NCBI GenBank assembly: GCA_049583715.1
Contig: JBAUWJ010000152.1
Location: 30-64,029 of the forward strand
DNA from: Arenicellales bacterium
GTDB lineage: Bacteria; Pseudomonadota; Gammaproteobacteria; Arenicellales; JAANXG01
Direction: 5' to 3'
DNA: 64,000 bases
A program made the translations under genes and the position numbers. The notes beneath the pieces are model-generated. The model was given only the letters and a program-made list of their open reading frames with translations. It was not told where the DNA came from and searched no databases. Shown here in pieces: positions 1-17,427 of this stretch. Every line of letters starts with the position of its first letter. The first letter of the stretch is position 1.

Positions 1-238
1 CATAGGTCATATCGGCAGGCATCTCGAAAGGCACGACATCCAGCGCGCCGAGCACCGCTTCGAGCTGCGCGGTCAGGCGCTGCGACCCCTTCTTCTCAGC
101 CCCGTAACGTAATTCAGCCGCGACGATGATGCTGGTGCAGACCTGCGCCTCGCCGACCCTGCGGATGTGCTCCACGACGCTGCCCTGCGGGTGGCGAACC
201 AGATCGGAGACGATGTTGGTATCGAGCAGGTACCGCAT
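1..238 (-). CDS. vapC: VapC-type PIN-domain toxin, N-terminal part only (gene runs off the left edge)
   Basis: Reverse translation from ATG 238-236 gives MRYLLDTNIVSDLVRHPQGSVVEHIRRVGEAQVCTSIIVAAELRYGAEKKGSQRL..., a typical VapC/FitB N-terminus. Its start overlaps the vapB stop (TGATG). It is absent from the ORF track because no stop lies in the window. Confidence 0.8.
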   Translation of the reverse strand, partial: MRYLLDTNIVSDLVRHPQGSVVEHIRRVGEAQVCTSIIVAAELRYGAEKKGSQRLTAQLEAVLGALDVVPFEMPADMTY

Positions 239-483
239 CAAAGCTCGACGGGCTCGGGATGCGGGTCCGGGATCGCTGGAAAATCTTCATCGAGCGGCGC
301 CAAGGTTGCCAGCAGCGCCAGCAGAGACTGGGGCGGGCTGGGCTCGATGATCAGCCTGTCCCCATCCTTGCGCATGATTGCGTCCTCACCCGGAAGCTCA
401 AACTCACGAGGAATACGGACGGCCTGGTTCCGGCCATTCTTGAAAAGCTTGACGTGTCGTTCGGGCACTGTGACTGGCCTCAT
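238..483 (-). CDS. vapB: VapB antitoxin, AbrB/SpoVT-type DNA-binding fold
   Basis: The 81-aa ORF MRPVTVPERHVKLFKNGRNQAVRIPREFELPG... matches the swapped-hairpin AbrB-like antitoxin pattern. It sits directly upstream of the PIN gene and overlaps it. Confidence 0.8.
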   Translation of the reverse strand: MRPVTVPERHVKLFKNGRNQAVRIPREFELPGEDAIMRKDGDRLIIEPSPPQSLLALLATLAPLDEDFPAIPDPHPEPVEL

Positions 484-486
484 GCG

Positions 487-506
487 GCATATGTCTAAGC
501 ATATGC
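487..506 (-). promoter_or_regulatory. Possible vapBC operator: tandem GCATATG / GCATATGC palindromes 12 bp apart, just upstream of the vapB ATG
   Basis: GCATATG at 487-493 and GCATATGC at 499-506, each containing the CATATG palindrome. Position fits an autoregulated TA promoter. No clear -35/-10 could be assigned. Confidence 0.3.
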
Positions 507-746
507 TAAATGAGATCCCCTGTCCACCGCTTCACTCAACAAGACTCTCGGTCGGCACGCGCCTGCCCTGCTTCACGTCTTACGCGCTTGAGGCGCCGAC
601 CCCCACCGCCGCACGGCCGCATCCTACGCAGTCGCCACCGCATCAAGCAGAGCGGATACGAGTTATCGTGTTGGCGCGCGGCGCCTCACCTGGGCCAATC
701 AAGTCCTTCTCGGTTTCCAGCATCCGCCACAACCGCGTAAAATCCA

Positions 747-3269
747 GTGCTATTCCCTGACCGGAGCCCTGACTTGGTGTGGCAGGGCGCCCTTCGAAAC
801 CGGCACCATACGATAGCCAACCCCGACGATATCCTTCGACAGATTGCAACCCTGAGGGGCCGGCTGTCTGCACTCGATCGGGAACGGACGATGATCGCCG
901 AGGAATTGGCCGCGCTTGAACGCAGGCAAACAGAGAGGATGAAACGTCGGGGCAATACCGTTGGGAGCGTCACCATGGCCTCCCCCACCGACGCGAAGAT
1001 CGCGCTTTACCGCAGCCTCTTTCGCGGACGTCAGGATGTAGTGCCCCGTCGGTGGGAAAACCCAAGAACTGGGAAGACAGGCTACGCGCCCATGTGCCGG
1101 AACGAATGGGTCGCGGGAGTCTGCCGAAAGCCCAAGGTGAAGTGCGGGGAGTGCCCAAACCAGGCGTTTATCCCTACCAGCGACGATGTTGTCCGGGCCC
1201 ATCTTGCAGGAAAGGCCTCCGGCAACACGGCCGATTTCACGCTTGGCGTCTACCCAATGCTGCCGGACGAGACATGCTGGTTTCTCGCCGTCGATTTCGA
1301 CAAGAAGTCGTGGATACAGGACGTCGCGGCATTCCGCGACACCGCGCGGGCCAAGGGTGTGCCCGTCGCCATCGAACGGTCACGCTCGGGCAATGGTGCT
1401 CATGTCTGGATCTTTTTCGCCGAGCCGGTACCGGCTACAGACGCAAGGCGCCTCGGTGCACTTCTTGTCACGGCAACGATGAATCGCTGCCCCGATATCG
1501 GCTTCGATTCGTATGATCGGTTCTTTCCGAGCCAGGACACACTGCCAGAGGGCGGTTTCGGCAATCTGATCGCTTTGCCGCTGCAAAGCCAACCTCGTGT
1601 CAATGGTAACAGCGTCTTCCTCGATGACGATTTCCTCCCCTATGAAGATCAGTGGGCGTATCTGTCAACGGTCGATCGGCTACCGTCTGCCGCGCTGACC
1701 TCCATCGTGGCCGAGGCTGCCGGTACCGGACAGATTGTGGCCGTTCGGATTCCCTCCACTGGAGAAGACGACCAGTCTTGGATGGGGCTGCCGTCCCGCC
1801 ACGGCAGGGAACCACCGCTCGATGGCGAGCTTCCCGGTTCGGTCGATGTCGTGCTGGGCAACCAGGTCTACATCGACCGAACGAAGCTACCGCCGGCCCT
1901 CGTGAACCGGATTGCACGGCTGGCCACCTTCCAGAACCCCGAGTTCTATGCGGCGCAGGCCATGCGCCTACCGACTTTCGGTAAGCCGCGCGTCATCTCC
2001 TGTGCCGAGTTGTATCCCAAACATGTCGCCCTGCCAAGGGGATGCATCGATGAGCTTCGGAATCTTCTCGGTGAGTGGGGCATTGCCGTCGAGCTGCGCG
2101 ACGAACGCCAACCTGGACTGCCCCTCGGCACACGTTTTCTCGGTAGTCTGACCCCGGAACAGAATGAAGCGGCGAATACCCTTCTCCAGTCTGAAACCGG
2201 GGTGCTCGCGGCGACCACGGCATTCGGCAAGACCGTTGTTGCCGCGAAACTGATTGCGGAGCGGGATCGAAATGTCCTGGTCCTCGTCCATCGCCGGCGC
2301 CTTCTCGATCAATGGTCGGCGCACTTACAGAACTTTCTGGATATTGCGCCGCATAGGCTTGGGGTCGTTCATGGCGGAAAGAGGAAGCCGAGCGGCCACG
2401 TCGACATTGCTCTCATGCAGAGTTTGATACGGAAAGGCGCCGTGGCCGACCTTGTCGCCGACTATGGGCACCTCATCGTCGATGAATGCCATCACGTGTC
2501 CGCCGTGAGCTTCGAAGCCATCGTCCGAGAGGCCAGGGCCCGATACGTGCTCGGCCTGTCTGCCACGGTGACGCGCAAGGACGGCCGCCATCCCATCATC
2601 TTCATGCAATGCGGCCCGATCCGCCATCGTGTCGACGCCAGGAAACAGGCAGCTCTTCGTCCCTTCGACCACAAGGTCGTGTTCCGGCGGACCGAGTTCC
2701 GGTACGTCCCGAACGATGACAATGAAAGGCCGCGGATCCAGGAGCTCTACGCAAAGCTCGCCCGAGATGGCGAACGGAACGATCTCATCTTCGATGACAT
2801 CCTGTCGGCCCTCGAAGAGGGTCGTTCGCCTGTGGTCATCACCGAACGCAAGGATCATCTCGATCAGCTGGCCGCACGTCTGTCGAAATTTGCAAAGAAC
2901 GTCATCGTTCTGCGGGGTGGAATGAGCACACGGCAGTCACGGATGGCAACCGAGGCTTTGGCCACAATCCCGGCCGGTGAAGAGCGCGTTCTGGTGGCGA
3001 CGGGTCGTTATCTCGGTGAGGGCTTCGATGATGCGCGGCTCGATACCCTGTTTTTGACCATGCCGATTTCCTGGCGCGGAATCCTTGCGCAGTATGCCGG
3101 CCGGCTGCACCGGTTGCACGCGACCAAACACGATGTCGTCATTTACGACTATGTGGATGAAAACGAGCCGATGCTGGCAAAGATGGCGGCCAAGAGAGAG
3201 GCCGGATATCGCAGCCTTGGGTACCGAACAGCATCGAAGGAGGAGTTTGGGAACCGCAAGAGCAAATAA
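747..3269 (+). CDS. Archaeo-eukaryotic primase (Prim-Pol)-like domain fused to an SF2 DEAD/DEAH-type helicase (840 aa)
   Basis: N-terminal coiled coil, then Cys cluster C117-x8-C126-x6-C133-x2-C136. AEP motifs: AVDFD (aa 181-185), SGNGAHVW (aa 214-221), GFGNLIALPLQ. Helicase motifs: I AFGKT (K495), II DECH (aa 579-582), III SAT, VI QYAGRLHR. The start is uncertain: M1 at 747, or M49 at 891. Confidence 0.85.
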   Translation: MLFPDRSPDLVWQGALRNRHHTIANPDDILRQIATLRGRLSALDRERTMIAEELAALERRQTERMKRRGNTVGSVTMASPTDAKIALYRSLFRGRQDVVPRRWENPRTGKTGYAPMCRNEWVAGVCRKPKVKCGECPNQAFIPTSDDVVRAHLAGKASGNTADFTLGVYPMLPDETCWFLAVDFDKKSWIQDVAAFRDTARAKGVPVAIERSRSGNGAHVWIFFAEPVPATDARRLGALLVTATMNRCPDIGFDSYDRFFPSQDTLPEGGFGNLIALPLQSQPRVNGNSVFLDDDFLPYEDQWAYLSTVDRLPSAALTSIVAEAAGTGQIVAVRIPSTGEDDQSWMGLPSRHGREPPLDGELPGSVDVVLGNQVYIDRTKLPPALVNRIARLATFQNPEFYAAQAMRLPTFGKPRVISCAELYPKHVALPRGCIDELRNLLGEWGIAVELRDERQPGLPLGTRFLGSLTPEQNEAANTLLQSETGVLAATTAFGKTVVAAKLIAERDRNVLVLVHRRRLLDQWSAHLQNFLDIAPHRLGVVHGGKRKPSGHVDIALMQSLIRKGAVADLVADYGHLIVDECHHVSAVSFEAIVREARARYVLGLSATVTRKDGRHPIIFMQCGPIRHRVDARKQAALRPFDHKVVFRRTEFRYVPNDDNERPRIQELYAKLARDGERNDLIFDDILSALEEGRSPVVITERKDHLDQLAARLSKFAKNVIVLRGGMSTRQSRMATEALATIPAGEERVLVATGRYLGEGFDDARLDTLFLTMPISWRGILAQYAGRLHRLHATKHDVVIYDYVDENEPMLAKMAAKREAGYRSLGYRTASKEEFGNRKSK

Positions 3270-3527
3270 TCCTTGAAGCACTCTTCCGCGTCGAAAGGCG
3301 TGTCAATTGAAGAACACCCCTAATCCGGAGCCAGCCCAAGCCGATCCTGGTAAACCGGAGCTTCGTGGTCCGAGCGTTGTGCCTATTCCGTTTGGGGTGC
3401 CGAGTCATTCTTTAAAAGCCGCCCCGAGCACGCCGACGCCGACGTCGAATGGTGTTTCGCCGCTTTCGCACATCCACCCGGGACGAAATGTGCTACACTT
3501 TGTGGGCACTTCATTTGGGTGAAGAGG

Positions 3528-3860
3528 ATGGAAGACTTCGATGTTTTTTCGGTACGGGATCTCAGAAACCGTTCTGGCGATCTGTTGCGGGATGCGGCAG
3601 CCGGCAAGGTCTCGTTGATCACCAAGCGCGGCACGCCTGCCATCCTGGCGTTACCGTTCGACGAGCACCTGCTCCGCCACGGCGTACATCGGGCGCTGGC
3701 GCTACATCTTTTCGAGTCCGGTCGGATGACCCTCACACAAGCAGCCAAGGTTGCCGACCTGTCCGTCGAGGAATTCGTAGCGCTGCTCGGTGAAGCCGGG
3801 ATACCCGCCGTCGACTATGCGCCCGAGGAGTTGAGGGAGGAGCTGGATACCGCTCGGTGA
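3528..3860 (+). CDS. Two-domain antitoxin: Phd/YefM-like N-terminus fused to a UPF0175-like C-terminus
   Basis: MEDFDVFSVRDLRNRSGDLLRDAAAGKVSLITKRGTPAILALP resembles Phd/YefM. LFESGRMTLTQAAKVADLSVEEFVALLGEAGIP resembles UPF0175. I prefer ATG 3528, which follows GAAGAGGA, over the track's GTG 3519. The stop overlaps the next gene's start (GTGATG). Confidence 0.7.
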   Translation: MEDFDVFSVRDLRNRSGDLLRDAAAGKVSLITKRGTPAILALPFDEHLLRHGVHRALALHLFESGRMTLTQAAKVADLSVEEFVALLGEAGIPAVDYAPEELREELDTAR

Positions 3861-4366
3861 TGGGTATCATTGTCGCCGATGCCAGCCCGCTGATCGGTCT
3901 GGCCAGAGCGGGCCGCCTCGAGCTCCTTCAAAGGCTCTATGGCTCGGTATGGATCCCTCCCGCTGTCCGTGATGAACTTCAAATCGGTTCACAACGCCCC
4001 GGCGCTTCGCGGCTCGAAAGCGCTTTGACGTCGGGTTGGCTCAAGGTCCACGGGCTTCCCGGATCGACTGACACCACCCTGACGCAACTCGCTCCTATCG
4101 TCGATGCCGGAGAAGCCGAGGCGATCGTGCTTGCGGAGCACATTGATTGTCGATTTCTACTGATCGACGACAGGCAAGGAAGAAGCATCGCGAAACGCCG
4201 GGGTGTGCCGGTTGTCGGTGTCGCGGGCATCTTGCTGGCGGCAAAGTATCACGGATTGATCGATGCCGTTTTACCGGTCATCCGTGAACTGGGGCAGGAA
4301 GGTTACCGATTGTCGTCCAGGCTCATGCGTGAGATCGCCAGACTAGCCGATGAAACGATGGAATGA
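3857..4366 (+). CDS. PIN-like nuclease, DUF3368-type (predicted toxin partner of UPF0175 antitoxins)
   Basis: IVADASPLIGLARAGRLELL..., DAGEAEAIVLA and LLIDDRQGR provide the conserved acidic residues of DUF3368/PIN proteins. The gene is translationally coupled to the upstream antitoxin. Confidence 0.75.
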   Translation: MMGIIVADASPLIGLARAGRLELLQRLYGSVWIPPAVRDELQIGSQRPGASRLESALTSGWLKVHGLPGSTDTTLTQLAPIVDAGEAEAIVLAEHIDCRFLLIDDRQGRSIAKRRGVPVVGVAGILLAAKYHGLIDAVLPVIRELGQEGYRLSSRLMREIARLADETME

Positions 4367-4710
4367 CCTCCACCAGGACTCGCTTCGGGAGGACGTTCGC
4401 CTCGAATAGATTACAACGGGAAGGAGTATTGTGCGATGAGAGCCTCGCGCTTCCGACGTGCGGTTCTACCGAGCCTTGCTGGACGCATCTGGGAAGACCT
4501 GTCATCTCTTTCCAGGTGGTGAGTCTCTATGCAACTGGAGCTGAACATGATCCCCCACCATATGCGCGAGCGTACCCGCGCGACTCTCATCAGGTCATTC
4601 GTGATCCGATCGCGCAAAGGATTTCTGATCGCGCTACCACGTACCAGACACCGGACTCAAGGACCGCATGCGATCAACACACATCACGCCCACTCGAACT
4701 GACATGATAA

Positions 4711-4731
4711 TGCCCGGGGCCGGACTCGAAC
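4711..4731. repeat. 21-nt exact direct repeat of the tRNA-Leu 3' end (att-like island junction)
   Basis: TGCCCGGGGCCGGACTCGAAC at 4711-4731 is identical to 6434-6454, the 3' acceptor/T-arm of tRNA-Leu read on the plus strand. Confidence 0.8.
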
Positions 4732-5180
4732 TCTGTTCTTCATCAACTACTTACATAGGCTTGGCGTAAAGTTGGCGTAAGTGATAGAACGTTGACAGAG
4801 AGGCACGCGCGCCACAGTCCTGGACCAGGGACGCACCGGTGACTACGTCAACATCTTCATTTCTACCCCAATCGTGGATCCAGTCCCTGCGCACTTCGCC
4901 CCTCCAGCGTGACGTTGGAACAACTGTCGGGCTGAAGCCCAACCTGTGCTCTCCGCCAAGGCGGCTTCGATCATCGCCTTCTGATCAGCGGCAAGCTTTC
5001 CGGAAAGCGACCGGGTTTGAGGGGACACTTCCACCGGCGGCATAGCGATGAACGAAGTACTCTTCACCCAGGAGTGGGACTGCCGGGCTCCAAGGCAACT
5101 GGTGGAGTGCCCGAAGAGGGGCCAGGGAGGCCGGGCGCTCCCGGCCGATGCCCCTTACGCTGGTTCCGGAGCCACCATAG

Positions 5181-5225
5181 ATGTCAATACAGATGTATTG
5201 ACATTCGCGAGAACCTGCTTAAGAT
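5181..5225 (+). promoter_or_regulatory. Sigma70-like promoter with an overlapping perfect inverted repeat (putative operator) for the RHH/NTase operon
   Basis: IR ATGTCAATAC-agat-GTATTGACAT at 5181-5204. TTGACA at 5198-5203, 16-nt spacer, TAAGAT at 5220-5225. The ATG at 5232 lies about 7 nt after the -10, which suggests a leaderless mRNA. Confidence 0.45.
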
Positions 5226-5231
5226 TGCGCC

Positions 5232-5729
5232 ATGGCCCGTGACCTGAAAACTACGCAGCTTCAGATCCGTCTGTCACCGCGTGAGAAGACCCGTATTGCC
5301 AGAGCCGCCAAATGCGCCGGTCTGGATGTGTCCGCCTATGTTCTGGGCCGGCTCCGGGAGCCCGCCGCGGAGAGATTTCAAGCATTGGTCAGCGAGCTGG
5401 CGACCGCCCCGGACCCAACTTTCGTCCTCGCCACCCTCAACGACTTCCTGGAGACTCTGGCGCCCGAAGACTTTCAAGCCGCCTGCGCACAGTCGCCGGC
5501 GCATTCACTGAACCCGCTCGCCGCCAATTATCTTGCCGCCATGGTCGAAACAGCCGCGCACCGCAAGCGCCGGCGCCCGCCCTCCTGGACCGCCCGCATC
5601 GAGCCTCTGGACGAGCCATGGTTTGCGTCTGGACTGCGGAGTCTCCGCCTCTGGCTGCTGGTGGTGTCGCCGCCGCCGTTCAAGCGGCGCAACCTATTCA
5701 TAGATGCCGGCCTGGGGGATCGGGTATGA
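5232..5729 (+). CDS. Ribbon-helix-helix (CopG/MobC-like) N-terminal domain protein with an uncharacterised C-terminal domain; putative antitoxin/regulator
   Basis: LQIRLSPREKTRIARAAKCAGLDVSAYVLGRL is a typical RHH segment. Its stop overlaps the next gene's ATG (ATGA at 5726-5729). Confidence 0.6.
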   Translation: MARDLKTTQLQIRLSPREKTRIARAAKCAGLDVSAYVLGRLREPAAERFQALVSELATAPDPTFVLATLNDFLETLAPEDFQAACAQSPAHSLNPLAANYLAAMVETAAHRKRRRPPSWTARIEPLDEPWFASGLRSLRLWLLVVSPPPFKRRNLFIDAGLGDRV

Positions 5730-6259
5730 CGGTTGCGCTGACCCGCGATAAAATCACAAAGCTTTTCCACGCGCTCAACGAGGAGCTCGCCCAGCAAGGG
5801 ATTTCGGGCGAAGTCTATGTGGTCGGTGGAGCTGTGATGTGCCTGGCAATGAAGGCACGGCAATCTACGCGTGATATCGACGCAGTCTTCGCCCCTGCCC
5901 CGGTAATCCGGGAAGCCGCCGCGCGCGTCGCGGAAGCGCTGCATGCCGACAAGGGCTGGTTGAACGATGCCGTAAAGGGATTTCTGAGCGATGCGGGACA
6001 GTTCCAAGACTATCTGGAACTGAGTCACCTGCGCGTGCTCGTCGCCCAGCCCGAGTACCTGCTGGCCATGAAGTGCCTCTCGATGCGCTTGGGCGCGGAA
6101 TTTCAGGATGAGCGGGACATTCAATTCCTGCTGCGTTACCTCAACATTGACGCCTACGACCAGGCAGTTGCCATCATCTCGAAGTACTACCCCCTCGAAC
6201 GCTTCCCTCAAAAGACACTGTACGCGTTGGAGGAGATGCTCACGCCAAAGGCACGATAA
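5726..6259 (+). CDS. Small nucleotidyltransferase-fold protein (MNT/AbiEii/DUF6036-like), putative toxin or effector
   Basis: The 177-aa protein starts MTVALTRDKITKLFHALNEEL and has the NTase signature YVVGGAVMCLAMKARQSTRDIDAVF (GG...[ST]xDxD). Only the 3' part of track ORF 5312-6259 is credible. Confidence 0.65.
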   Translation: MTVALTRDKITKLFHALNEELAQQGISGEVYVVGGAVMCLAMKARQSTRDIDAVFAPAPVIREAAARVAEALHADKGWLNDAVKGFLSDAGQFQDYLELSHLRVLVAQPEYLLAMKCLSMRLGAEFQDERDIQFLLRYLNIDAYDQAVAIISKYYPLERFPQKTLYALEEMLTPKAR

Positions 6260-6346
6260 CGGCACGACGGCTCCTCCCGCTTGCACATGAGCGTGCTCAA
6301 CCCGGCTGAATTCACGGCAGAAGTCTACATAAGACTCTCGGTCAAC

Positions 6347-6403
6347 ATCCTGTATTGCTTCGCTTCGCTCGCAACGACGGTGACACAATTAACCAGAGTT
6401 TCC
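6347..6403. repeat. Half copy of repeat family C
   Basis: ATCCTGTATTGCTTCGCTTCGCTCGCAACGACGGTGACACAATTAACCAGAGTTTCC matches the right arm of the full elements at 17425-17555 and 59876-59995. Confidence 0.7.
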
Positions 6404-6433
6404 CTAAAGTACGAGTCGCCGAATTTAGTAATT

Positions 6434-6766
6434 GTGCCCGGGGCCGGACTCGAACCGGCACGGCCTTACGGCCAGCGGATTTTACTTGCCCACTACAGCT
6501 TTTGCTGCCCGCCGGAGGACCGGCGGTTTGGGGTCTGGACTATCTCTTTGCCCTATGCGGGCTCGTCGCCGCGCACTTAGGCAGGGGCCGTCTAGTCTCT
6601 ACACTTTCCCCGATCGTGGACCACATCCCACGCATGAGGCTTAGCTCGGGATTGCCATCAGCTTGACCTGTTAAGGGTTCCCCGAATTTGACCCCTGACT
6701 CACCACGGGTTTCCCCGTGGCGGACCCGAACCGAGTCCGCTGCGTCTACCTGTTCCGCCACCCGGG
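6434..6766 (-). tRNA. tRNA-Leu(UAA), interrupted in the anticodon loop by a group I intron (exons 6766-6733 and 6483-6434)
   Basis: Joined exons give GCCCGGGTGGCGGAACAGGTAGACGCAGCGGACT + TAAAATCCGCTGGCCGTAAGGCCGTGCCGGTTCGAGTCCGGCCCCGGGCA, 84 nt. This is a class II tRNA with a long variable arm, acceptor GCCCGGG/CCCGGGC and anticodon loop CUUAAAA. CCA is not encoded. Confidence 0.9.
6484..6732 (-). ncRNA. Group I intron (IC3-like, tRNA-intron type), 249 nt, no internal ORF
   Basis: P1 pairs GCGGACU(CG) with (CG)GGUCCGC, with a U-G wobble at the 5' splice site. The last intron nucleotide is G (6484). R-like GUGUAGAGACUAGACGG (plus 6587-6603), S-like AAAGAGAUAGUCCAG (plus 6534-6548) and Q-like GGCAAUCCCGAGC are present. 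It resembles my recollection of the Anabaena tRNA-Leu intron. Confidence 0.85.
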
Positions 6767-6830
6767 CAGTCGCGAGGCAAGCTTAAGGTCTTTGGAGGGT
6801 GTTTGCAAAACAAGGGGGGAACAGGGAACC

Positions 6831-6904
6831 TGGAGGCTGGGCCCGGAATCGAACCGAGGTCCGCGGATTTGCAGTCCGCTGCATAACCACTCTGCCACCC
6901 AGCC
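6831..6904 (-). tRNA. tRNA-Cys(GCA)
   Basis: GGCTGGGTGGCAGAGTGGTTATGCAGCGGACTGCAAATCCGCGGACCTCGGTTCGATTCCGGGCCCAGCCTCCA folds as a cloverleaf. Anticodon loop CUGCAAA; CCA is encoded. Confidence 0.95.
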
Positions 6905-7266
6905 CGAGATGGACGATCGCGACCGCCGGCGGCTCTGCGGAAAATACTCGCTGGAGGCCGAGTTCCGCGGCAGGGGGCGAATCGTACAAAAAGCGTTGCT
7001 GCACCGCAAGCACTCGATCCCCGCCGCCGGGCGCACAAGCAGTCAAGCCGGAACAGCTCCGGGAGCTCTCCTCCCATCCCGGAAAGTCCGGCATAACCCG
7101 GCGACACTTCGCCCGTTAAGGAGTTGATTTCATTGGGACTTCACCCGGTGTCACAAGCACTTGTAGTACACTACGGAACTCAATCGCGTGCCGGGGCAGT
7201 CCGCCCAGTCGCCGGATCGTTGCACCGTTCGCTGCAACTTCATACACACCTTCGCTGGCCACGACC

Positions 7267-8238
7267 ATGATCCCGACAGAGCTGCGCGGCTCTCCCCCAT
7301 CGGATGATGCTCCGAAGAGCCCGAAGTGGCTCGTGATCACCAGGCGCGCTCTGCACATCGGATTCGTGCTCGCGATCTGCGGCTATCTGGTCTACCGACT
7401 CTCCGAGCTCGGTTGGTACGAAGTACTCGCCTCGTTGCCGGTGTCCCCCTGGTTCTATGTCCTGTTCGTGGTGCGGTTTCTCAGTTTGCCGCTGTTCGAA
7501 ATCGTCATCTATCGGCGTTTCTGGCGGTTCTCCATCCCACGCTCGATTCCCGTGTTCCTGCGCAAGCGCGTCTACAACCACGCGCTTCTGGACTACTCCG
7601 GAGAGGCCTATTTCTATCTCTGGGCCCAGAAGAACTCCCGCGACCCCGAGACGAGAACCTTCTCGATTATCAAGGATGTGAACATCGCGTCGGCCATCGT
7701 CTCCATTGCGGTCATGATCGCGCTGCTGCTGGCCTTTGCCAATTCGAGCTCGGTTCACCAGATCGACAGGTTCTTTCCGTCCGCCAATGTTTACCTCTGG
7801 GTCTTCTCGTCGTTCAGCTTCGTCTCGCTGTGCTTCCTTGTCGCTTTCCGGCGCCGCGTCGTGTTCCTGCCGGCCACCGACATGGCGGCTGTGTCGGCAA
7901 TTCATATCGTGCGCCTCGCCGTGGTGCTTCTCCTTCAGGCCCTGCAGTGGTGGGTCGCGATACCGGCGGTGCCGCTCATGGACTGGCTGTTCTTCCTCAC
8001 GCTGTACATGGTTGTGGGGCGCCTGCCCTTCGTCCCAAGCAAGGATCTGACCTTCCTCGCCGTCGCCGTCGCGTTCGCCGGCACCGTACCGGCCGAGGAA
8101 ACCGCCATCAGCGCCATGTTCCTCGCCAACCTGGCCTTGTATCAGATCGCCAACCTGTTCGTGTATACGGGAACGTCCTTCAAGGACCACGCAATGTTCA
8201 TAGGCAAGGCCGAAAGACGGCAGTCCCGCCATGCCTAG
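7267..8238 (+). CDS. Polytopic inner-membrane protein, possibly UPF0104 / lysyl-PG-synthase-TM (flippase-like) family
   Basis: Seven or more hydrophobic helices, e.g. HIGFVLAICGYLVYRL and WFYVLFVVRFLSLPLFEIVIY. The motif NHALLDYSGEAYFYLWA resembles the N..P..GE signature of that family. The antisense ORF 7240-8433 is R/E/D/G-rich shadow. Confidence 0.5.
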   Translation: MIPTELRGSPPSDDAPKSPKWLVITRRALHIGFVLAICGYLVYRLSELGWYEVLASLPVSPWFYVLFVVRFLSLPLFEIVIYRRFWRFSIPRSIPVFLRKRVYNHALLDYSGEAYFYLWAQKNSRDPETRTFSIIKDVNIASAIVSIAVMIALLLAFANSSSVHQIDRFFPSANVYLWVFSSFSFVSLCFLVAFRRRVVFLPATDMAAVSAIHIVRLAVVLLLQALQWWVAIPAVPLMDWLFFLTLYMVVGRLPFVPSKDLTFLAVAVAFAGTVPAEETAISAMFLANLALYQIANLFVYTGTSFKDHAMFIGKAERRQSRHA

Positions 8239-11241: not shown

Positions 11242-12834
11242 TCAGGAGCTGCGGCCGTCGATGAAACGCAGCTTGACCAGATCGTTTCCGTACGAGCCGG
11301 CGAGTTGCTTCAGCTCTCCGGCATTGCCTTGGAGGTCGACGATCTGGATGGTCGGGTCGATGAAGCCCATCGCGGGGAGGACGCCGCTGATCTGCAGCCT
11401 GGGCTTGTCCAACAGGGTCCTGTAGTAGGCCGCCCACTCGTCGTGGCTGGGGTAATGGACCCACAAGCTACTCGAGAGCATGATTCTCTCGTACTGAAAG
11501 CTCGATATCGCGGCGTATCGATAATGGTGTCCGCGCACGACCCCGGGCCGCAGGAAGGCTACGGAGACCTGGTCCGGGCGCGTATCCGTGAGAGTTTCAC
11601 ATTGCACACCGAAGCAGTCGCGCGTGTAGTGCTCGATCACGATCGGACCGGGTAAACGGTCCAGTATCCGCCCGGCGACGTCGCGGGTATCCAGGGCCAG
11701 CGCCTGATTGTACTTGCAGCTCAGGGAATACGCCGGCAGAGACAACAGGCACAGGGCCACCAACGGCAGAGCGGACCCCGGCTTCGGTCCCGGCCACGAC
11801 GCGACCTTCTCGAGCATCATCCCCGTGGTGATCGCCAGCAGGGGCACGAGGGGCATCGCATACCGCATGAAGTCCGGGAACGGCTTCATCGGGGTCGATT
11901 CGATCATCATGTAGTAGCCGCCGAGGGCGACCAGCAAGGTGCGGGTCGTCGTCGGATGGTCTCGCCATCCCAGCACCAGCCACAATGAAGCCACCAGGGC
12001 CGGAATCAGCAGCCACGAGGTCATGCCCGGCTGCAGGCTCGCAAGCAGATGAAAGGTCCACAGGAATTGGAACGGCAGGATTTTCGCCTGGTGGCCCTCG
12101 ATGGGATGGATCAACTCGTTGCCGAGCCCGTGTAGAAAGTTCCCGGGATCGAGAAACAGCGGCGCATTGACGACCAGAAATACCACGCAGGCCGTCAACA
12201 GCGCGCGACGCGTGGCCCGGCGAAAAGCTTCCTCATCGAAACCGTCCCCGGCGAGCCGCGGCACCGACCAGGCGAGCAGCAGCACGGCGGCGCCGATGTA
12301 CTTCGATGACATCGCGAGGCCCGAGGCCACCCCGAAAACCACCCATCGAAGCCGGGAAGGCACCCGGATCATGGCCATCAACGCGGCGAGGCTCAAGGTA
12401 GTGAAGCAGACGAACCAGGCGTCCTCCTTGAGGTAGTGCATGTGGACCACCGTCAACGGCGCTACAGCGGTGGCCAGCGCGCAGCCCAGGGCGGTGGCGC
12501 GGCCGACGAACCAGCGGGCGAGGAGATAACTTGCGAGCACGAAACCGATCCCGAACAAGGCAGCCACTTGGCGCCCCAGCAACAGCACCTGCTCAGCGTC
12601 TGACACATGTCGCAGCCACGCCGCCGCTTTGATGGTCAACAGCATGAGGATCGGGTGAAAGAAATCCTCCGTGCCCCGCAGAACGAACAACACCTTCTTG
12701 GCGCTCTCCGGATTATGCCCCGGGGAGTAGTCGATGTTCTGGTTGAAAAGGTGGTAACAGAAAGCGGCCAGCAACACCAGGACGACCGGCACCAGCCAGG
12801 CGCCGATCTCCGGTCTGCGGCCGGAGCTCAACAC
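11242..12834 (-). CDS. Polytopic membrane glycosyltransferase, GT-C fold (GT39/ArnT/PMT-like), putative
   Basis: About 12 predicted TM helices plus a soluble C-terminal domain, a general ArnT-like layout. The track ORF start (12933) overlaps tRNA-Gly. GTG at 12834 or ATG at 12645 are more plausible starts. Confidence 0.5.
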   Translation of the reverse strand: MLSSGRRPEIGAWLVPVVLVLLAAFCYHLFNQNIDYSPGHNPESAKKVLFVLRGTEDFFHPILMLLTIKAAAWLRHVSDAEQVLLLGRQVAALFGIGFVLASYLLARWFVGRATALGCALATAVAPLTVVHMHYLKEDAWFVCFTTLSLAALMAMIRVPSRLRWVVFGVASGLAMSSKYIGAAVLLLAWSVPRLAGDGFDEEAFRRATRRALLTACVVFLVVNAPLFLDPGNFLHGLGNELIHPIEGHQAKILPFQFLWTFHLLASLQPGMTSWLLIPALVASLWLVLGWRDHPTTTRTLLVALGGYYMMIESTPMKPFPDFMRYAMPLVPLLAITTGMMLEKVASWPGPKPGSALPLVALCLLSLPAYSLSCKYNQALALDTRDVAGRILDRLPGPIVIEHYTRDCFGVQCETLTDTRPDQVSVAFLRPGVVRGHHYRYAAISSFQYERIMLSSSLWVHYPSHDEWAAYYRTLLDKPRLQISGVLPAMGFIDPTIQIVDLQGNAGELKQLAGSYGNDLVKLRFIDGRSS

Positions 12835-13633: not shown

Positions 13634-15445
13634 CTATTGATGGAAGTGTTTGTAGATCCTGCGCGCCAGGTCCGAACTGATGCCGGGCACCTTCGAGAGG
13701 TCGTCTATTCCCGCCCTCTGAATCTCCTGGAGGCCACCCAGGTGCCTGAGCAGAGACTGGCGGCGCTTCTGGCCCACGCCGGGGATTTCCTGCAGCGAAG
13801 ACGTGACCCGCGCCCTGGCCCGCCGCCGCCGGTGCCCGGTAATGGCGAAACGATGGGCTTCGTCCCGGATTTGTTGAATGAGATGCAGGCCCGTCGAGTG
13901 GGCGCGGGGGCGGATCGCGTGTCTCGTCCCGGACACGTACAGCTTCTCGAAACCCGGCTTGCGGGTGGGTCCCTTGGCCACGGCCATGATCGAGACGCCG
14001 TCTATCTGCAATTCCTCGAGAACCTCCTCGGCAACGGCGAGCTGCCCTTTGCCCCCGTCGATGATCAGGAGGTCGGGAACGCGCCCCTCCCCGTCCTTGA
14101 GCTTCTTGTACCGGCGTGAGAGGGCTTCCCTCAACGCCGCGTAGTCATCGCCCGGCGCCCCGGGCTTGACGTTGTATCGACGGTAGTCCGCGGTCTCCGG
14201 GCCGCCCTCGTCGAAGACGACACAGGAAACGACGGCGGCCTCTCCCTGCGTGTGGCTCACGTCCACGCATTCCATGCGCTGCGGCACCGCCTCGAGGCCC
14301 AGGATGCGCTGCAGCGATTCGCGCTTTTCCACCTGGCCGGCCTGCTCACAGAGGTGCCCCGCGAGGTGATGACGGGCATTCTCCGTGGCGCTGTCGAGCA
14401 GGCGCGCCCTGCGTCCGCGCGGCCTCGCCTGGAGACGAACCTTCCGGCCTTCTCGCTCCGAGAGCATGCCTTCGATGAGTGCGGCGCCCCGCGGCGCCGG
14501 ATGCACCAGGATCTGAGGCGGCACGGGCTTGTCCAGGTAGAACTGTCCCAGGAAGGCGCTCATCACCTCCTCCGCCCGGGTCTCCAGGTTGATCCTGGGG
14601 AAGAAAGCCTTGCTGCCACTGTGCCGGCCGGACCGTACGAAGGTCACGTCGATGCAGGCCGCGCCGGCCTCCATCGCCAGGGCCACGACGTCCCAGTCGC
14701 CGTCGCCGCTGCTGATGGACTGCGTCTCCTGGATGCGCGCGAGGGAGCGGATCCGGTCGCGATACATGGCGGCGGTCTCGAAATCCATCTCGGACGATGC
14801 CTTCTCCATGGTATCCGACAGGTAGTGATGCAGCCTGTCATTCCGGCCCTCGAGAAACAGCACCGCCTGCTCTACGTCCCGCCGGTATCGCTCAGCGTCG
14901 ACATAGCCGACGCAGGGCGCGGTGCAGCGCTCGATCTGGTACTGCAGGCAGGGGCGCGAGCGGGTACGGTAGAAGGTGTCCTCGCACTGCCGGACGGGAA
15001 AGATCTTCTGGAGCTGCGCCAGGATCTCTCGCACCGCACCGGCGTTCGCGTAGGGACCGAAGTAGCGGCCCGGCTGGGAGCGGTTGCCGCGGTAGAAGCC
15101 GAGGCGGGGAAACTCGGTGCTGTCATCGAGATGGATGTAGGGATAGCTCTTGTCGTCCCGCAGCACGACGTTGTAGCGCGGCCGGTGCTTCTTGATGAGA
15201 TTGTTCTCGAGCAGCAGGGCCTCGCTTTCCGTGTGGGTCCTGATGACCTCGATGTTTGCGACGTGACGCATCATGGCCTGGGTCTTGGGCGGCAGCCCGC
15301 TCGAGCGGAAGTAGCTCGCGACCCGCTTCTTCAGGCTTCTGGCCTTGCCGACATAGATGGGTTCCCCCGCCGCGCTCATCATCTGATAAACGCCGGGAGA
15401 GTCGTCGAGGGTCGCCAGGAACGCTTTGGAATCGAATTCGGGCAT
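13634..15445 (-). CDS. uvrC: Excinuclease ABC subunit C
   Basis: 603 aa. N-terminal GIY-YIG (GVYQM...IYVGKA...LKKR), UVR domain, C-terminal (HhH)2. Confidence 0.95.
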   Translation of the reverse strand: MPEFDSKAFLATLDDSPGVYQMMSAAGEPIYVGKARSLKKRVASYFRSSGLPPKTQAMMRHVANIEVIRTHTESEALLLENNLIKKHRPRYNVVLRDDKSYPYIHLDDSTEFPRLGFYRGNRSQPGRYFGPYANAGAVREILAQLQKIFPVRQCEDTFYRTRSRPCLQYQIERCTAPCVGYVDAERYRRDVEQAVLFLEGRNDRLHHYLSDTMEKASSEMDFETAAMYRDRIRSLARIQETQSISSGDGDWDVVALAMEAGAACIDVTFVRSGRHSGSKAFFPRINLETRAEEVMSAFLGQFYLDKPVPPQILVHPAPRGAALIEGMLSEREGRKVRLQARPRGRRARLLDSATENARHHLAGHLCEQAGQVEKRESLQRILGLEAVPQRMECVDVSHTQGEAAVVSCVVFDEGGPETADYRRYNVKPGAPGDDYAALREALSRRYKKLKDGEGRVPDLLIIDGGKGQLAVAEEVLEELQIDGVSIMAVAKGPTRKPGFEKLYVSGTRHAIRPRAHSTGLHLIQQIRDEAHRFAITGHRRRRARARVTSSLQEIPGVGQKRRQSLLRHLGGLQEIQRAGIDDLSKVPGISSDLARRIYKHFHQ

Positions 15446-15457
15446 GTATCCGCTTCG

Positions 15458-16090
15458 CTATGCAAGGAGCTGACGAACTCGATCGAACACCTGCGCGAAC
15501 ATGGCTTCCGTCAAACGTCCCGTTTGCGTGTTGTACCGGCTGCAGTGATAGCTGTCCACCAGGGTCCTTCCCGCGGGCAGCTCATGGCGCGCCGCGTGAG
15601 CGAACCTGAACCCGGACTGCCTGAGGTCGAGCGCTCTGAGCACGGCGCGATGGGCGAGGACTCCCAATGCCAGAATGACAAGATCCGCCCGGGATTGTTC
15701 AATCTCCGACCTCAGGAAGCGGTTGCAGTTGATGACTTCCGAGTTCAAGGGCTTGTTCTCAGGCGGCAGGCATTTCACGGCGTTGGTGATCCGGCAGTCT
15801 CGAAGCGCCAGCCCGTCGTCCGCCGAGTGGGATTCCGGCCGGGTGGCGAATCCGAACCGGTGCAGGGTCCTGTAGAGCAGGATTCCGGCATAATCCCCGG
15901 TAAACGGCCGCCCGCTGGCATTGGCCCCGTGCTTGCCGGGCGCCAGGCCGACGATGAGGAGCCGGGCATCGGGGTCACCGAACGGGGCCACCGGGGCACA
16001 ATGGTAAGTGGGATGCTCGTTCGCGACGGCGCGCAGGAACTCCGCCAACCTGGCGCATCTGCGGCATCCCGGATCAAAGCTCGCGTTCAC
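15458..16090 (-). CDS. Uracil-DNA glycosylase superfamily protein (family 4/5-like)
   Basis: CRRCARL..., LLIVGLAPGKHGANASGRPFTGDYAG and the C-terminal SYHCSRYN motif. Confidence 0.8.
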   Translation of the reverse strand: MNASFDPGCRRCARLAEFLRAVANEHPTYHCAPVAPFGDPDARLLIVGLAPGKHGANASGRPFTGDYAGILLYRTLHRFGFATRPESHSADDGLALRDCRITNAVKCLPPENKPLNSEVINCNRFLRSEIEQSRADLVILALGVLAHRAVLRALDLRQSGFRFAHAARHELPAGRTLVDSYHCSRYNTQTGRLTEAMFAQVFDRVRQLLA

Positions 16091-16121
16091 ACGGGTAGTA
16101 TGCCAGAGAGGCTTGGGGCTG

Positions 16122-16151
16122 TTGCCGTGGCGGGCGCGCTTCCCCTAGAAT
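16122..16151 (+). promoter_or_regulatory. Candidate sigma70 promoter of efp
   Basis: TTGCCG at 16122-16127, 18-nt spacer, TAGAAT at 16146-16151, about 35 nt upstream of the efp start. Confidence 0.3.
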
Positions 16152-16185
16152 CGCGCTTCTCTTTCAACTCGATTGTGACAGACTT

Positions 16186-16746
16186 TTGAAAATCTCTGCG
16201 TTCGAGATCCGCGTCGGCAATTTGATGGAATATCAGGGCAAGCTGTGGCGGGTGCTCAAGAAGAATCACGTGAAGCCCGGAAAGGGCGGGGCCTTCGTGC
16301 AGGTCGAGCTGAAGGACATCGTTGGGGGGACCAAGCTCAACGAGCGCTTCCGTTCGGTGGACACCGTGGAGAAGGCCCACGTGGAGCCGAGGCAGATGGT
16401 ATACCTCTACGCGGAGTCCGACGCCCTGGTGTTCATGGACAACGAGACCTTCGAGCAGATGCATATCCCCCGTGAGGACCTGGAGGACCAGCTCGGTTAT
16501 CTCCTGCCCAATACCGAGGTCCAGGTGAACTTCCACAACGACGTGCCGATCGGGGTCGACCTGCCGGCGAACGTGGTGCTGGAGGTGGTGGATACGGAGA
16601 GCGTGGTCAAGGGCCAGACGGCGACGGGCTCGGGCAAGCCGGCAGAGCTGGAGACGGGGCTCAAGGTCATCGTTCCGCCTTTCGTGGGCATCGGCGACAA
16701 GATCAAGGTGAATACCGATTCGGGGGAATACGTCGAGCGGGCGTAA
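16186..16746 (+). CDS. efp: Elongation factor P (TTG start)
   Basis: Contains KPGKGGAFVQVELKD, the loop carrying the modified lysine. 186 aa. Confidence 0.93.
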   Translation: MKISAFEIRVGNLMEYQGKLWRVLKKNHVKPGKGGAFVQVELKDIVGGTKLNERFRSVDTVEKAHVEPRQMVYLYAESDALVFMDNETFEQMHIPREDLEDQLGYLLPNTEVQVNFHNDVPIGVDLPANVVLEVVDTESVVKGQTATGSGKPAELETGLKVIVPPFVGIGDKIKVNTDSGEYVERA

Positions 16747-16829: not shown

Positions 16830-16938
16830 CATGAACCAGGGAAGGGTCTTCGTCGGTACGCGGTAAATACATCCCTGTAGGCTCCGCTGCCGCTATCCCT
16901 GCGGCAGAGGCCCGACGAAAACCCTTCCCCGGTCCATG
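16830..16938. repeat. Repeat family A copy A1 (about 107-nt CATG-bounded hairpin element)
   Basis: CATGAACCAGGGAAGGGTCTTCGTCGG...CCCGACGAAAACCCTTCCCCGGTCCATG. The arms are complementary and the central core is ATCCCTGTAGGCTCC. Confidence 0.8.
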
Positions 16939-17076
16939 CTTCACGGAGGTGCGGACCTCCCTGGCTACGTCGCTCCTCGGCGTCGACGGAGCTTGCGCGA
17001 AGGGTCCCCTCCCCTGCTGGACGAGTTCGAGGAGGGTGGGGATAGGACGACGCCTGGAGGCCGAACCGAAAGCATG

Positions 17077-17427
17077 GTGACCCCAAACACCGCCCCCTCA
17101 CCCCAGCCCTCTGCCGAAAGGTCCCAAGGGAGAGGGAGCAACGTCCCCTCTCCCGCTGGCGCGAGAGGGTCAGGGTAAGGGTGGTTCCAAACACCGCCCC
17201 CTCGCCCCAGCCCTCTCGCGGTGGAAGAGGGAGCGATGTTCCCTCTCCCGCTGGCGGGACGACTCCAGGGACGGAGGAGGTAGAGCGAAGCACGGAGCCG
17301 GAGCCGAGAGGGTTAGGGTGAGGGTGGTTTCGAACACTGCCCCCTCGCTCCAGAGAGGGAGCAACGTCCTCCCCCGCGCTGGCGCAGGCACAGCGAAGCC
17401 TGAAGCTAGACTCGAGAGGGTCAGGGA
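17077..17427. repeat. Repeat family B: three imperfect tandem copies of a G/C-tract hairpin unit
   Basis: Sub-motifs recur near 17077, 17181 and 17323: GGTGGTTCCAAACACCGCCCCCTCGCCCCAGCCCTCT, AGAGGGAGCNANGTTCCCTCTCCCGCTGGCG and CGAGAGGGTCAGGGTAAGGGTGG. Neighbouring motifs are mutually complementary. Confidence 0.7.

Follow-up and report, generated by a model that had tools for sequence, protein, structure and literature searches.

What is the role of a single protein that joins a primase-polymerase to a helicase motor and is encoded among toxin-antitoxin modules? This question is raised by a gene in a 64,000-nucleotide stretch of DNA from an Arenicellales bacterium (assembly GCA_049583715.1, contig JBAUWJ010000152.1, positions 30 to 64,029 of the forward strand), the whole of which is called the window here. 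The gene (747..3269, plus strand), delimited by its open reading frame (ORF), Pfam and a database match, encodes a fusion of an archaeo-eukaryotic primase (AEP) primase-polymerase with an XPB-like superfamily 2 (SF2) helicase. The protein analysed is the 840-residue product of the ORF with its GTG start, and the database search returned it as a 100% match to P0001, a protein of an Arenicellales metagenome-assembled genome. An earlier note on this DNA had read the gene as a candidate conflict system and the most plausible undescribed system in the window. Our analysis partly supports that interpretation. The reading frame carries all the motifs that the note quoted, most of them invariant or nearly so among homologues, and a role in conflicts over foreign DNA is the reading that we tentatively favour; the description as undescribed fails, the family being already named (Z1568-like, relatives of CRISPR-associated Prim-Pols, Pfam, PADLOC and RefSeq).

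The window gene is a member of a catalogued, uncharacterised family (Z1568-like, or AEP-TOTE), and the window copy is an ordinary representative of it. The window protein shares 46% identity over 778 residues and an identical Pfam architecture with WP_000233452.1 of E. coli O157:H7. On the published map of O-island 48, about 7 kb separate integrase Z1559 from Z1566, and about 8 kb separate it from Z1567 (PMC3064760); transferred to the O157:H7 locus (L093), this map identifies the gene of WP_000233452.1 as Z1568, an assignment that is positional and not derived from the locus tag itself. Z1568 gave its name to the 'E. coli Z1568-like family', which the 2005 AEP classification (Iyer et al.), as listed in PMC5862659, places in the Prim-Pol clade; the bll5242-like family may be an alternative name. 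RefSeq names the product of the E. coli copies, and likewise of one Bradyrhizobium homologue, a TOTE conflict system AEP. The same architecture recurs, at 72-82% identity, in the best 120 of at least 8,000 database matches, and a search with the AEP domain alone collected 8,198 clusters (50% identity) at E ≤ 1e-3, of which 1,450 passed E ≤ 1e-30. A full-length homologue was present in 684 of 5,426 complete E. coli genomes (12.6%), nearly always on the chromosome, and some of the E. coli copies were disrupted by insertion sequences (IS).

Both catalytic halves of the protein are intact. Conservation was read from an alignment of 55 sequences in two clades (A3), the second clade being only 41-44% identical to that of the window. 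The AEP (Prim-Pol clade) catalytic domain occupies residues 84-318 (996..1700, plus strand) and matches PF22548 (AEP-TOTE) with an E-value of 2.5e-94 and 315.6 bits against a gathering score of 27, covering profile positions 2-228 of 230. Its motif I aspartates D183 and D185 (AVDFD) and motif II residues S214, G215, G217 and H219 (SGNGAH) are invariant, as are the acidic residues D257 and D264 of the motif III region, and residues G272-N273-L274-I275-A276, P278 and Q280 of the GFGNLIALPLQ block are invariant or nearly so. The AEP core motifs named in the earlier note are thus present and conserved, with the correction that GFGNLIALPLQ is a family signature common with CRISPR-associated Prim-Pols (CAPPs) and not the classical acidic motif III. 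The SF2 helicase/translocase core (residues 467-805; 2145..3161, plus strand) was identified by Pfam (ResIII at residues 467-609, 7e-21; DEAD, 6e-12; Helicase_C at residues 685-790, 2.6e-5), phmmer and Foldseek. Its Walker A residues (G494-K495-T496), motif II (DECH, 579-582), A606 and T607 of motif III (SAT, 605-607) and the motif VI residues Q782, R786 and R789 are all invariant. The catalytic residues being invariant across two clades, both enzymes are under selection for activity.

The remaining parts of the protein are less sharply defined. AlphaFold, run on the two-clade alignment, gave a mean pLDDT of 67 (80-90 in the helicase, moderate in the AEP core, below 50 in the four-cysteine loop); an earlier run on 46 sequences, all more than 70% identical, reached a pLDDT of 59 and was discarded. 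A long N-terminal helix was modelled at residues 26-67 (822..947, plus strand; pLDDT about 80). The coiled coil claimed previously stands as far as this helix goes, and the model suggests that it probably serves as a coiled-coil oligomerisation element. The alignment to Z1568 starts at residue 51 of the window protein, and only about 18 residues precede the aligned region in the E. coli protein; the additional helix is specific to the window clade. The start annotated by NCBI, ATG891 (codon 49, giving 792 residues), cuts this conserved helix. Since L36 and L40, both upstream of ATG891, are invariant in the alignment, translation begins further upstream, probably at GTG747, TTG774 or GTG777, the start given by NCBI lying too far downstream. 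The cluster of four cysteines (C117, C126, C133 and C136; 1095..1154, plus strand) holds as first described, with C126 kept in at least 90% of the sequences and the other three invariant. It is a putative zinc-binding module, as its conservation suggests; no structural claim is made on the metal site because the region is poorly modelled. The supposed linker of some 200 residues proved to be a connector of about 145 (residues 320-465; 1704..2141, plus strand), delimited by AlphaFold secondary structure and pLDDT and partly folded: residues 328-354 and 395-418 are disordered, 365-377 form strands, and 383-404 and 431-443 form helices. It holds many invariant residues, e.g., N397-P398, F400, P430-R431 and C433. 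Part of it seems to be a folded accessory domain, because the alignments to XPB and UvsW span about 500-520 columns and exceed the motor of about 370 residues (467-840); as modelled, the connector is probably the counterpart of the N-terminal accessory domain in XPB/UvsW-type helicases.

By sequence, the AEP half is closest to the Prim-Pol core of the Marinitoga CAPP (7nqd/7nqf/7p9j; E 2.6e-10), whose PDB entries are identified in PMC10345425. Motifs Ia, I and II and the FPxQ...GGxGNLIxxPL block all align: LFRGRQDV of the window protein corresponds to LFSGREDV of the CAPP in the N-terminal strand, AVDFD to AYDID in motif I, SGNGAHVWIFF to TGNRGYHIWIFF in motif II, and FPSQD..GGFGNLIALPL to FPKQT..GGLGNLIKVPL in the motif III region. 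CAPPs possess primase, polymerase and strand-displacement activity (PMC8211822, PMC10345425), the TPR-type member being the only one biochemically characterised. They carry a C-terminal PriCT-like domain, whereas the window protein has its four cysteines towards the N-terminal end of the AEP domain, on an inserted stretch of about 37 residues (roughly residues 106-163) that, according to the alignment, is not present at that position in the solved CAPP core. The PADLOC model for cas-associated PrimPol (PDLC01465, a model without a curated cut-off) matched the AEP domain at 8.8e-88, and the NCBIfam model of CAPP type A1 (NF040561) gave 85.3 bits, below its cut-off of 200. A 'CAPP-Helicase' type (class A) was described by Zabrady et al. 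(2021), who also noted helicase-fused relatives outside CRISPR (PMC8211822); the window protein matches the latter.

The helicase half is an XPB/UvsW-like SF2 enzyme and not an XPB orthologue, as judged from sequence comparison and predicted fold. Phmmer placed it nearest to archaeal XPBII (6p4f, 1.9e-14) and also matched Rad25 (2fwr). In Foldseek the fold matched XPB in TFIIH, archaeal XPB-Bax1 and T4 UvsW, the best entries being 9pd3_A (XPB, 1.4e-19) and 2oca (UvsW, 2.9e-17), with a probability of 1.0, target-normalised TM-scores of 0.47-0.59 and only 15-20% identity to XPB and UvsW. The NCBIfam XPB model (NF045503) scored 53 bits, far below its cut-off of 610. Like XPB-type SF2 helicases, the window protein has two RecA lobes with motifs I, II, III and VI; in our reading of the phmmer alignment, R610-K-D612 after SAT stands at the position of the XPB RED motif. 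We know of no XPB fused to a primase. The earlier statement that the helicase is a complete SF2 enzyme and not of the SF3/DnaB type is borne out, and sets the protein apart from replicative primase-helicases (pRN1 ORF904, P4 alpha and D5-like proteins), which have hexameric helicases of the SF3, DnaB or MCM type.

Further insight into the function of the family came from its relatives. A C-terminal extension of about 150 residues was found in 18 of about 45 full-length representatives (50% identity). Among 10 extensions scanned, three contained PLDc_2 (P0235, P0155 and P0216) and one a DUF559/Vsr-like domain (P0126), and several of these extensions were without a Pfam match. The AEP-helicase-PLD clade is very large and conserved (Acidobacteriota, Desulfobacterota), its HxKxxxxD...GSxN motif is intact, and in the one context examined the gene is solitary beside a HigB/HigA-type pair. 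The fusion of a PLD or Vsr-like nuclease in sister clades fits a conflict role. Archaeal XPB has the Bax1 nuclease as a separate partner; in the AEP-helicase sister clades, by contrast, the nuclease is part of the polypeptide. No remnant of a nuclease domain was found 3' of the window gene, so that the window copy is natively nuclease-free. N-terminal fusions were seen as well, to a GNAT acetyltransferase (P0216) and an FMN_red flavoreductase (P0245).

The distribution of the family is cellular and patchy. No full-length homologue was found in 50,697 phage records, where only the helicase half matched phage helicases at no more than 27% identity (Vibrio phages were among the best of these matches), and only 7 loci were found in 2.9 million IMG/VR contigs. 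Species-representative genomes held at least 583 relatives. Full-length copies occurred in 98 plasmid records, mostly of large alphaproteobacterial plasmids, and the AEP domain was also found on plasmids of E. coli, Klebsiella, Pantoea, Acinetobacter, Burkholderia, Bacillus, Lacticaseibacillus and Aliarcobacter. In the plasmid contexts examined, the surroundings were accessory genes (IS, mer, HipA, antirestriction, toprim, DUF2493 and toxin-antitoxin pairs) and not replication or origin modules. A home in plasmid or phage replication modules, which would have spoken against a conflict system, was thus not what the phage records, the IMG/VR contigs and the plasmids revealed.

The neighbourhood of the gene was compared between 140 immediate neighbours and 140 control genes 7-10 kb away at the same loci, using tables of the top 25 families, which makes the counts approximate. 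Toxin-antitoxin and Abi families (AbiEii, Fic, GNAT-TacA, RES, Gp49, MazE) accounted for 22 neighbours and 2 controls (p-value 1.7e-5), DUF736 for 11 and at most 1 (p-value 0.005), and recombinases or transposases for 13 and 5 (p-value 0.09); as plain counts, the neighbours matched 130 PADLOC families and the controls 41. The defence-island context claimed before is visible in the toxin-antitoxin and Abi enrichment; the family is tied to mobile elements no less strongly than to defence. DUF736 genes stood beside the AEP-helicase more often than those of any other family (11 of 140 neighbours). A search for a conserved partner gene, in which six-frame ORFs within 6 kb were clustered across 82 loci, yielded no family in more than 13 loci; repair genes did not recur in the same clustering, and tyrosine or serine recombinase families appeared within 6 kb in 12, 8 and 7 of the loci, in overlapping sets. 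Neighbour orientation was random (upstream, 41 on the same and 29 on the opposite strand; downstream, 37 and 38), with median gaps of 231 bp upstream and 111 bp downstream, and the gene was solitary in every annotated context examined. The claim that the window gene has no same-strand partner needs qualifying in one respect: a PIN toxin-antitoxin pair lies on the same strand 249 bp away, and across 80 loci no conserved partner was found. Intact copies at L001, L086 and L102 had no mobile-element backbone.

A tight same-strand series AbiEi - AbiEii - AEP-helicase - SNF2/SWIM helicase was observed at L078 (8047-14943), L080 (8043-15095) and L065 (8076-15092); at L078 the AbiEii and AEP-helicase genes overlap by 4 bp. 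As a general four-gene system this arrangement was rejected, since it was confined to these three loci (about 85% identical to each other) and truncated relatives; it could be a lineage-specific multi-gene variant in a few related Hyphomicrobiales elements.

A second type of setting ties the family to mobile DNA. In 13 loci other than the window, the AEP-helicase is bounded by inverted repeats of 65-179 nt and up to 100% identity, the termini of which carry ATTATGC-type repeats. On pAMI8 and Pukyongiella p2, repeats of 177-179 nt (98-99% identical) enclose exactly the AEP-helicase and three tyrosine recombinases. Units of this kind (form A, 6.2-6.3 kb: L085 7756-14044, L084 7727-14066, L035, L071 and L075) have inverted repeats of 119-179 nt that are 98-100% identical and no other genes inside, and two whole contigs span from repeat to repeat. 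A form of about 7.5 kb was found at L031, L033, L048 and L063, and at L027 and L068 the AEP-helicase stands alone between related repeats (about 2.7 kb). At L048, two identical DUF736 genes in inverted orientation (12479-12778, minus strand; 16856-17155, plus strand) flank the recombinase trio of the 7.5-kb form. The unit of p2 (L085) splits a gene for a methyltransferase/Strawberry-notch-type helicase into parts at 5970-7820 and 14039-16675 (both minus strand), with MTS and AAA_34 domains on one side and Helicase_C_4 on the other, and in-silico removal of the 6.3-kb unit restores one ORF of about 1,470 residues. At L084, L085 and L075 the target flanks are homologous, with a palindrome TTATCC..GGATAA, and are found in either orientation, which suggests site-specific insertion or inversion. 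Elements with three overlapping tyrosine-recombinase genes are known as recombinase-in-trio (RIT) elements from alphaproteobacterial plasmids and chromosomes (PMC3414803); helicase or primase cargo is not mentioned for them, and their mobility has not been experimentally shown (Van Houdt et al. 2012, PMC3414803). The window copy has neither recombinases nor long inverted repeats: no inverted repeats were found around it (local alignment score 19 against 17.5 +/- 2.3 for shuffled sequence, z = -0.5), and its flanks matched no repeat arm of the units linked to a recombinase trio.

In E. coli the gene was found on two different islands, the urease/tellurite island of O157:H7 (L093, 3820-14361) and a tRNA-Thr island with cdiBAI (L094, 6190-12367). 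In both it directly follows YfjI (DUF3987, 1e-76) and a weakly Rep-like 'inovirus-type Gp2' near an integrase. The same position in two different islands suggests that the AEP-helicase may be backbone and not cargo. This integrase-YfjI-Gp2 backbone around Z1568 differs from the setting of the window gene, which lies among toxin-antitoxin modules near an intron-bearing tRNA-Leu.

The name of the Pfam family points to a further possibility, namely that the protein serves as effector in a canonical TOTE system of several genes, or as a CAPP-like accessory in CRISPR adaptation, with its partners encoded elsewhere. TOTE stands for TPR, OB, TBP and Effector (Aravind et al. 2022, as cited in bioRxiv 10.1101/2025.09.15.676423). 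Besides the family name, the PADLOC match to 'CAS-associated PrimPol' (8.8e-88) and distant Cas1/Cas4 matches speak for such an assignment. The latter are anecdotal observations among the control genes 7-10 kb off, at one or two of loci L001-L089, and suspected cas genes at L065 and L028 turned out to be housekeeping genes. Neither a TPR-OB/cold-shock-domain nor a TBP partner was found by Pfam among the window neighbours, and no TPR, cold-shock or TBP family was matched by two or more of the 140 immediate neighbours (about 75 loci). No cas gene was detected in the window island by Pfam or PADLOC, a crude scan of about 100 loci yielded no CRISPR array, and the CAPP A1 score was 85 against the required 200 bits. 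Membership in the AEP-TOTE domain family thus holds, in agreement with the label that the earlier note gave, by both PF22548 and the RefSeq name; the TOTE system itself is not present, because no TPR-OB or TBP partner occurs in the window or recurs in about 80 homologous loci. The TOTE/CAPP explanation is extremely unlikely and, for the window locus, already largely refuted.

Tentatively, and with considerable doubt, we read the protein as a self-contained enzyme that islands, plasmids and transposon-like units carry as an accessory module of one gene. It would not replicate its carrier but take part in conflicts over DNA that is foreign or competing, by interference directed against plasmids, phages or other elements. 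This reading is favoured because of the nuclease-fused clades, the toxin-antitoxin and Abi neighbours, the intact copies without a mobile backbone, the absence from phages and a precedent in Thermus thermophilus: the Ppol of ICETh2, encoded beside a helicase, is dispensable for replication of the element, and its loss raises the uptake of foreign DNA 100-1000-fold (PMC7693054). The patchy and dispensable nature of the gene, seen in the 12.6% of E. coli genomes that carry it and in the IS-disrupted copies, points the same way. Several observations weigh against a conflict role. As the earlier note had supposed, no experimental study of any family member was found in the literature, and PADLOC 2.0 holds no named system for the gene, common though it is in E. 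coli. For a defence gene, sequence identity is very high (72-82% among the best 120 matches, 46% to E. coli), and this degree of conservation speaks against an arms race with proteins of phages. The window copy lacks a nuclease, and the AlphaFold model is only moderate, with poor AEP loops. Moreover, the AEP-helicase is the sole non-recombinase gene inside the rhizobial and rhodobacterial units, and in E. coli it always stands behind the YfjI/Gp2 island-backbone genes.

These last points fit a helper in mobile-element replication, transposition or establishment, which would prime and unwind its own carrier, be it an excised island circle, a RIT intermediate or single-stranded DNA arriving by conjugation. 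Parallels for such a role are offered by the primase-helicase of satellite phage P4 and the PrimPol-plus-helicase replication modules of mobile elements. It is the main rival of the conflict reading, judged rather unlikely, and has several observations on its side: the units in which the gene and a recombinase trio are the sole content between inverted repeats, including the clean insertion in a plasmid gene; the recurrence of recombinase families within 6 kb; and the eleven direct neighbours of type DUF736, a marker of integrative and conjugative elements (ICEs) and plasmids. High conservation suits an enzyme acting on DNA and fits better here than an arms race. In the literature, most bacterial AEPs are thought to be replicases of mobile elements (PMC5862659), and the E. 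coli position beside an integrase and after YfjI/Gp2 recalls that DUF3987 partners another PrimPol, the pAgo-associated AgaPP, whose DUF3987 helicase (5'-3') forms with it a mobile-element replication/repair module (PMC11724360). In both this module and ICETh2 Ppol with its helicase, a mobile-element-borne PrimPol works with a helicase, as in the window family, and the two serve as precedents for the two leading hypotheses; in both the enzymes are separate proteins, whereas those of the window are fused, and the partner of AgaPP is a DUF3987 and not an XPB-like helicase. A carrier replicase is hard to reconcile with nuclease-fused sister clades, and many loci keep an intact gene in the absence of integrase, Rep or other mobile backbone. 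No conserved cis element or origin-like flank accompanies the gene in the window or at most loci, and no full-length homologue occurs in the phage records. The carrier plasmids, by organism and size, look like large alphaproteobacterial ones that would have replication systems of their own, and the Thermus precedent had no role in ICE replication (PMC7693054). A horizontally spread factor of DNA damage tolerance or repair would, by analogy to eukaryotic PrimPol combined with an XPB/UvsW motor, reprime past lesions and remodel stalled forks. Translesion synthesis and repriming are common activities of Prim-Pols, the helicase is nearest to XPB, RadD and UvsW, conservation is high, and some copies lie among housekeeping genes. 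Furthermore, AgaPP, which derives from a mobile element, promotes repair when present in E. coli (PMC11724360). Such a factor is nevertheless very unlikely: neither the patchy distribution on islands and plasmids nor the excess of toxin-antitoxin and Abi neighbours is what a repair gene shows, no repair genes recur nearby, nuclease-fused relatives exist, and the Thermus Ppol mutant showed no apparent change in DNA-damage sensitivity (PMC7693054). A small remainder of the probability falls to none of these readings.

If the conflict reading holds, the protein would oligomerise through its N-terminal coiled coil, and its XPB/UvsW-like motor would, by comparison with XPB, XPB-Bax1 and UvsW, bind duplex or branched DNA and open it by ATP-driven translocation. 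The CAPP-type AEP, aided by the four cysteines, might then prime de novo on the exposed strand and extend with strand displacement. Such unscheduled synthesis may lead to branched or blocked intermediates that would stop the replication or establishment of the target DNA; for the window copy this damaging step is purely hypothetical. In the sister clades the same core, to which the PLD or Vsr-like nuclease is fused, would deliver that nuclease to cut the DNA. It is also conceivable, and quite unlikely, that one polypeptide interferes by DNA synthesis and not by cleavage and doubles as the replication or transposition module of undescribed RIT 'self-priming' elements, which would insert site-specifically into a methyltransferase-helicase gene of conjugative plasmids.

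The family is among the largest bacterial primase-polymerase families of uncharacterised function, and members occur in an eighth of the complete E. coli genomes, that of O157:H7 among them. The tractable E. coli orthologue mapped to Z1568, the defined catalytic residues (D183/D185 and K495) and the natural variants with and without a nuclease make its function testable. Interference by priming and synthesis, if true, would represent a new effector logic alongside defence-associated reverse transcriptases; service to a RIT unit would open a first functional approach to elements of experimentally unshown mobility.

In the window itself, the gene lies between two non-coding regions of 263 bp (484..746) and 249 bp (3270..3518), in line with the roughly 250 bp reported for each side. 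The upstream region is shared with a divergent vapBC operon and contains a promoter-like site (714-743, plus strand; a consensus match only) that abuts GTG747; in the downstream region no conserved element was seen. A conserved cis element or non-coding RNA in these flanks was considered and rejected: they had no similarity to the flanks of 89 other loci, and Rfam found nothing beside the gene. The position between vapBC and a PIN toxin module was confirmed. On the upstream side lie a VapB/MazE-fold antitoxin gene (vapB, 238-483, minus strand; MazE_antitoxin and VapB models) and a PIN/VapC toxin gene cut by the window edge (2-241, minus strand; PIN 6.7e-8). On the downstream side, Pfam and PADLOC identified a UPF0175/Phd-like antitoxin (3519-3860, plus strand) and a PIN-DUF3368 toxin (3857-4366, plus strand), a pair that matches PADLOC candidate PDC-S70.

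Genes in roughly the first 7 kb (1-7100; toxin-antitoxin genes and AEP-helicase) have a third-position GC of 0.62-0.71, and those beyond 7.2 kb (7267 onward) one of 0.79-0.87; this step marks the first part as compositionally foreign and fits horizontal acquisition. The codon-usage gene caller was validated against the RefSeq annotation, with 5.2-6.3 kb of the window still miscalled. The contig ends about 275 bp past the window. The tRNA integration site invoked in the earlier note stands as a tRNA-Leu with an att-like repeat, and the AEP-helicase lies outside the segment bracketed by this repeat. An exact 21-nt copy of the tRNA-Leu 3' end (4711..4731, minus strand; repeat family D1) forms a direct repeat, GTTCGAGTCCGGCCCCGGGCA on the minus strand, with 6435-6455. 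The bracketed 1.7 kb contain a NikA/TacA-like gene (5232-5729) and a DUF6036 nucleotidyltransferase gene (5738-6259), and the repeats look like att scars of a decayed integrated element. The tRNA gene (6435..6767, minus strand) is of type II and, by its exons and Rfam RF00028, reads as a tRNA-Leu with a group I intron at about 6524-6743 (47.8 bits, where the gathering score is 50; E 5.3e-10, a full-length model match). Missed by ARAGORN, the split gene shows a long variable arm, discriminator A and tRNA-Leu(CAA) identity once the exons are joined, and it adjoins a tRNA-Cys gene (6831-6904, minus strand).

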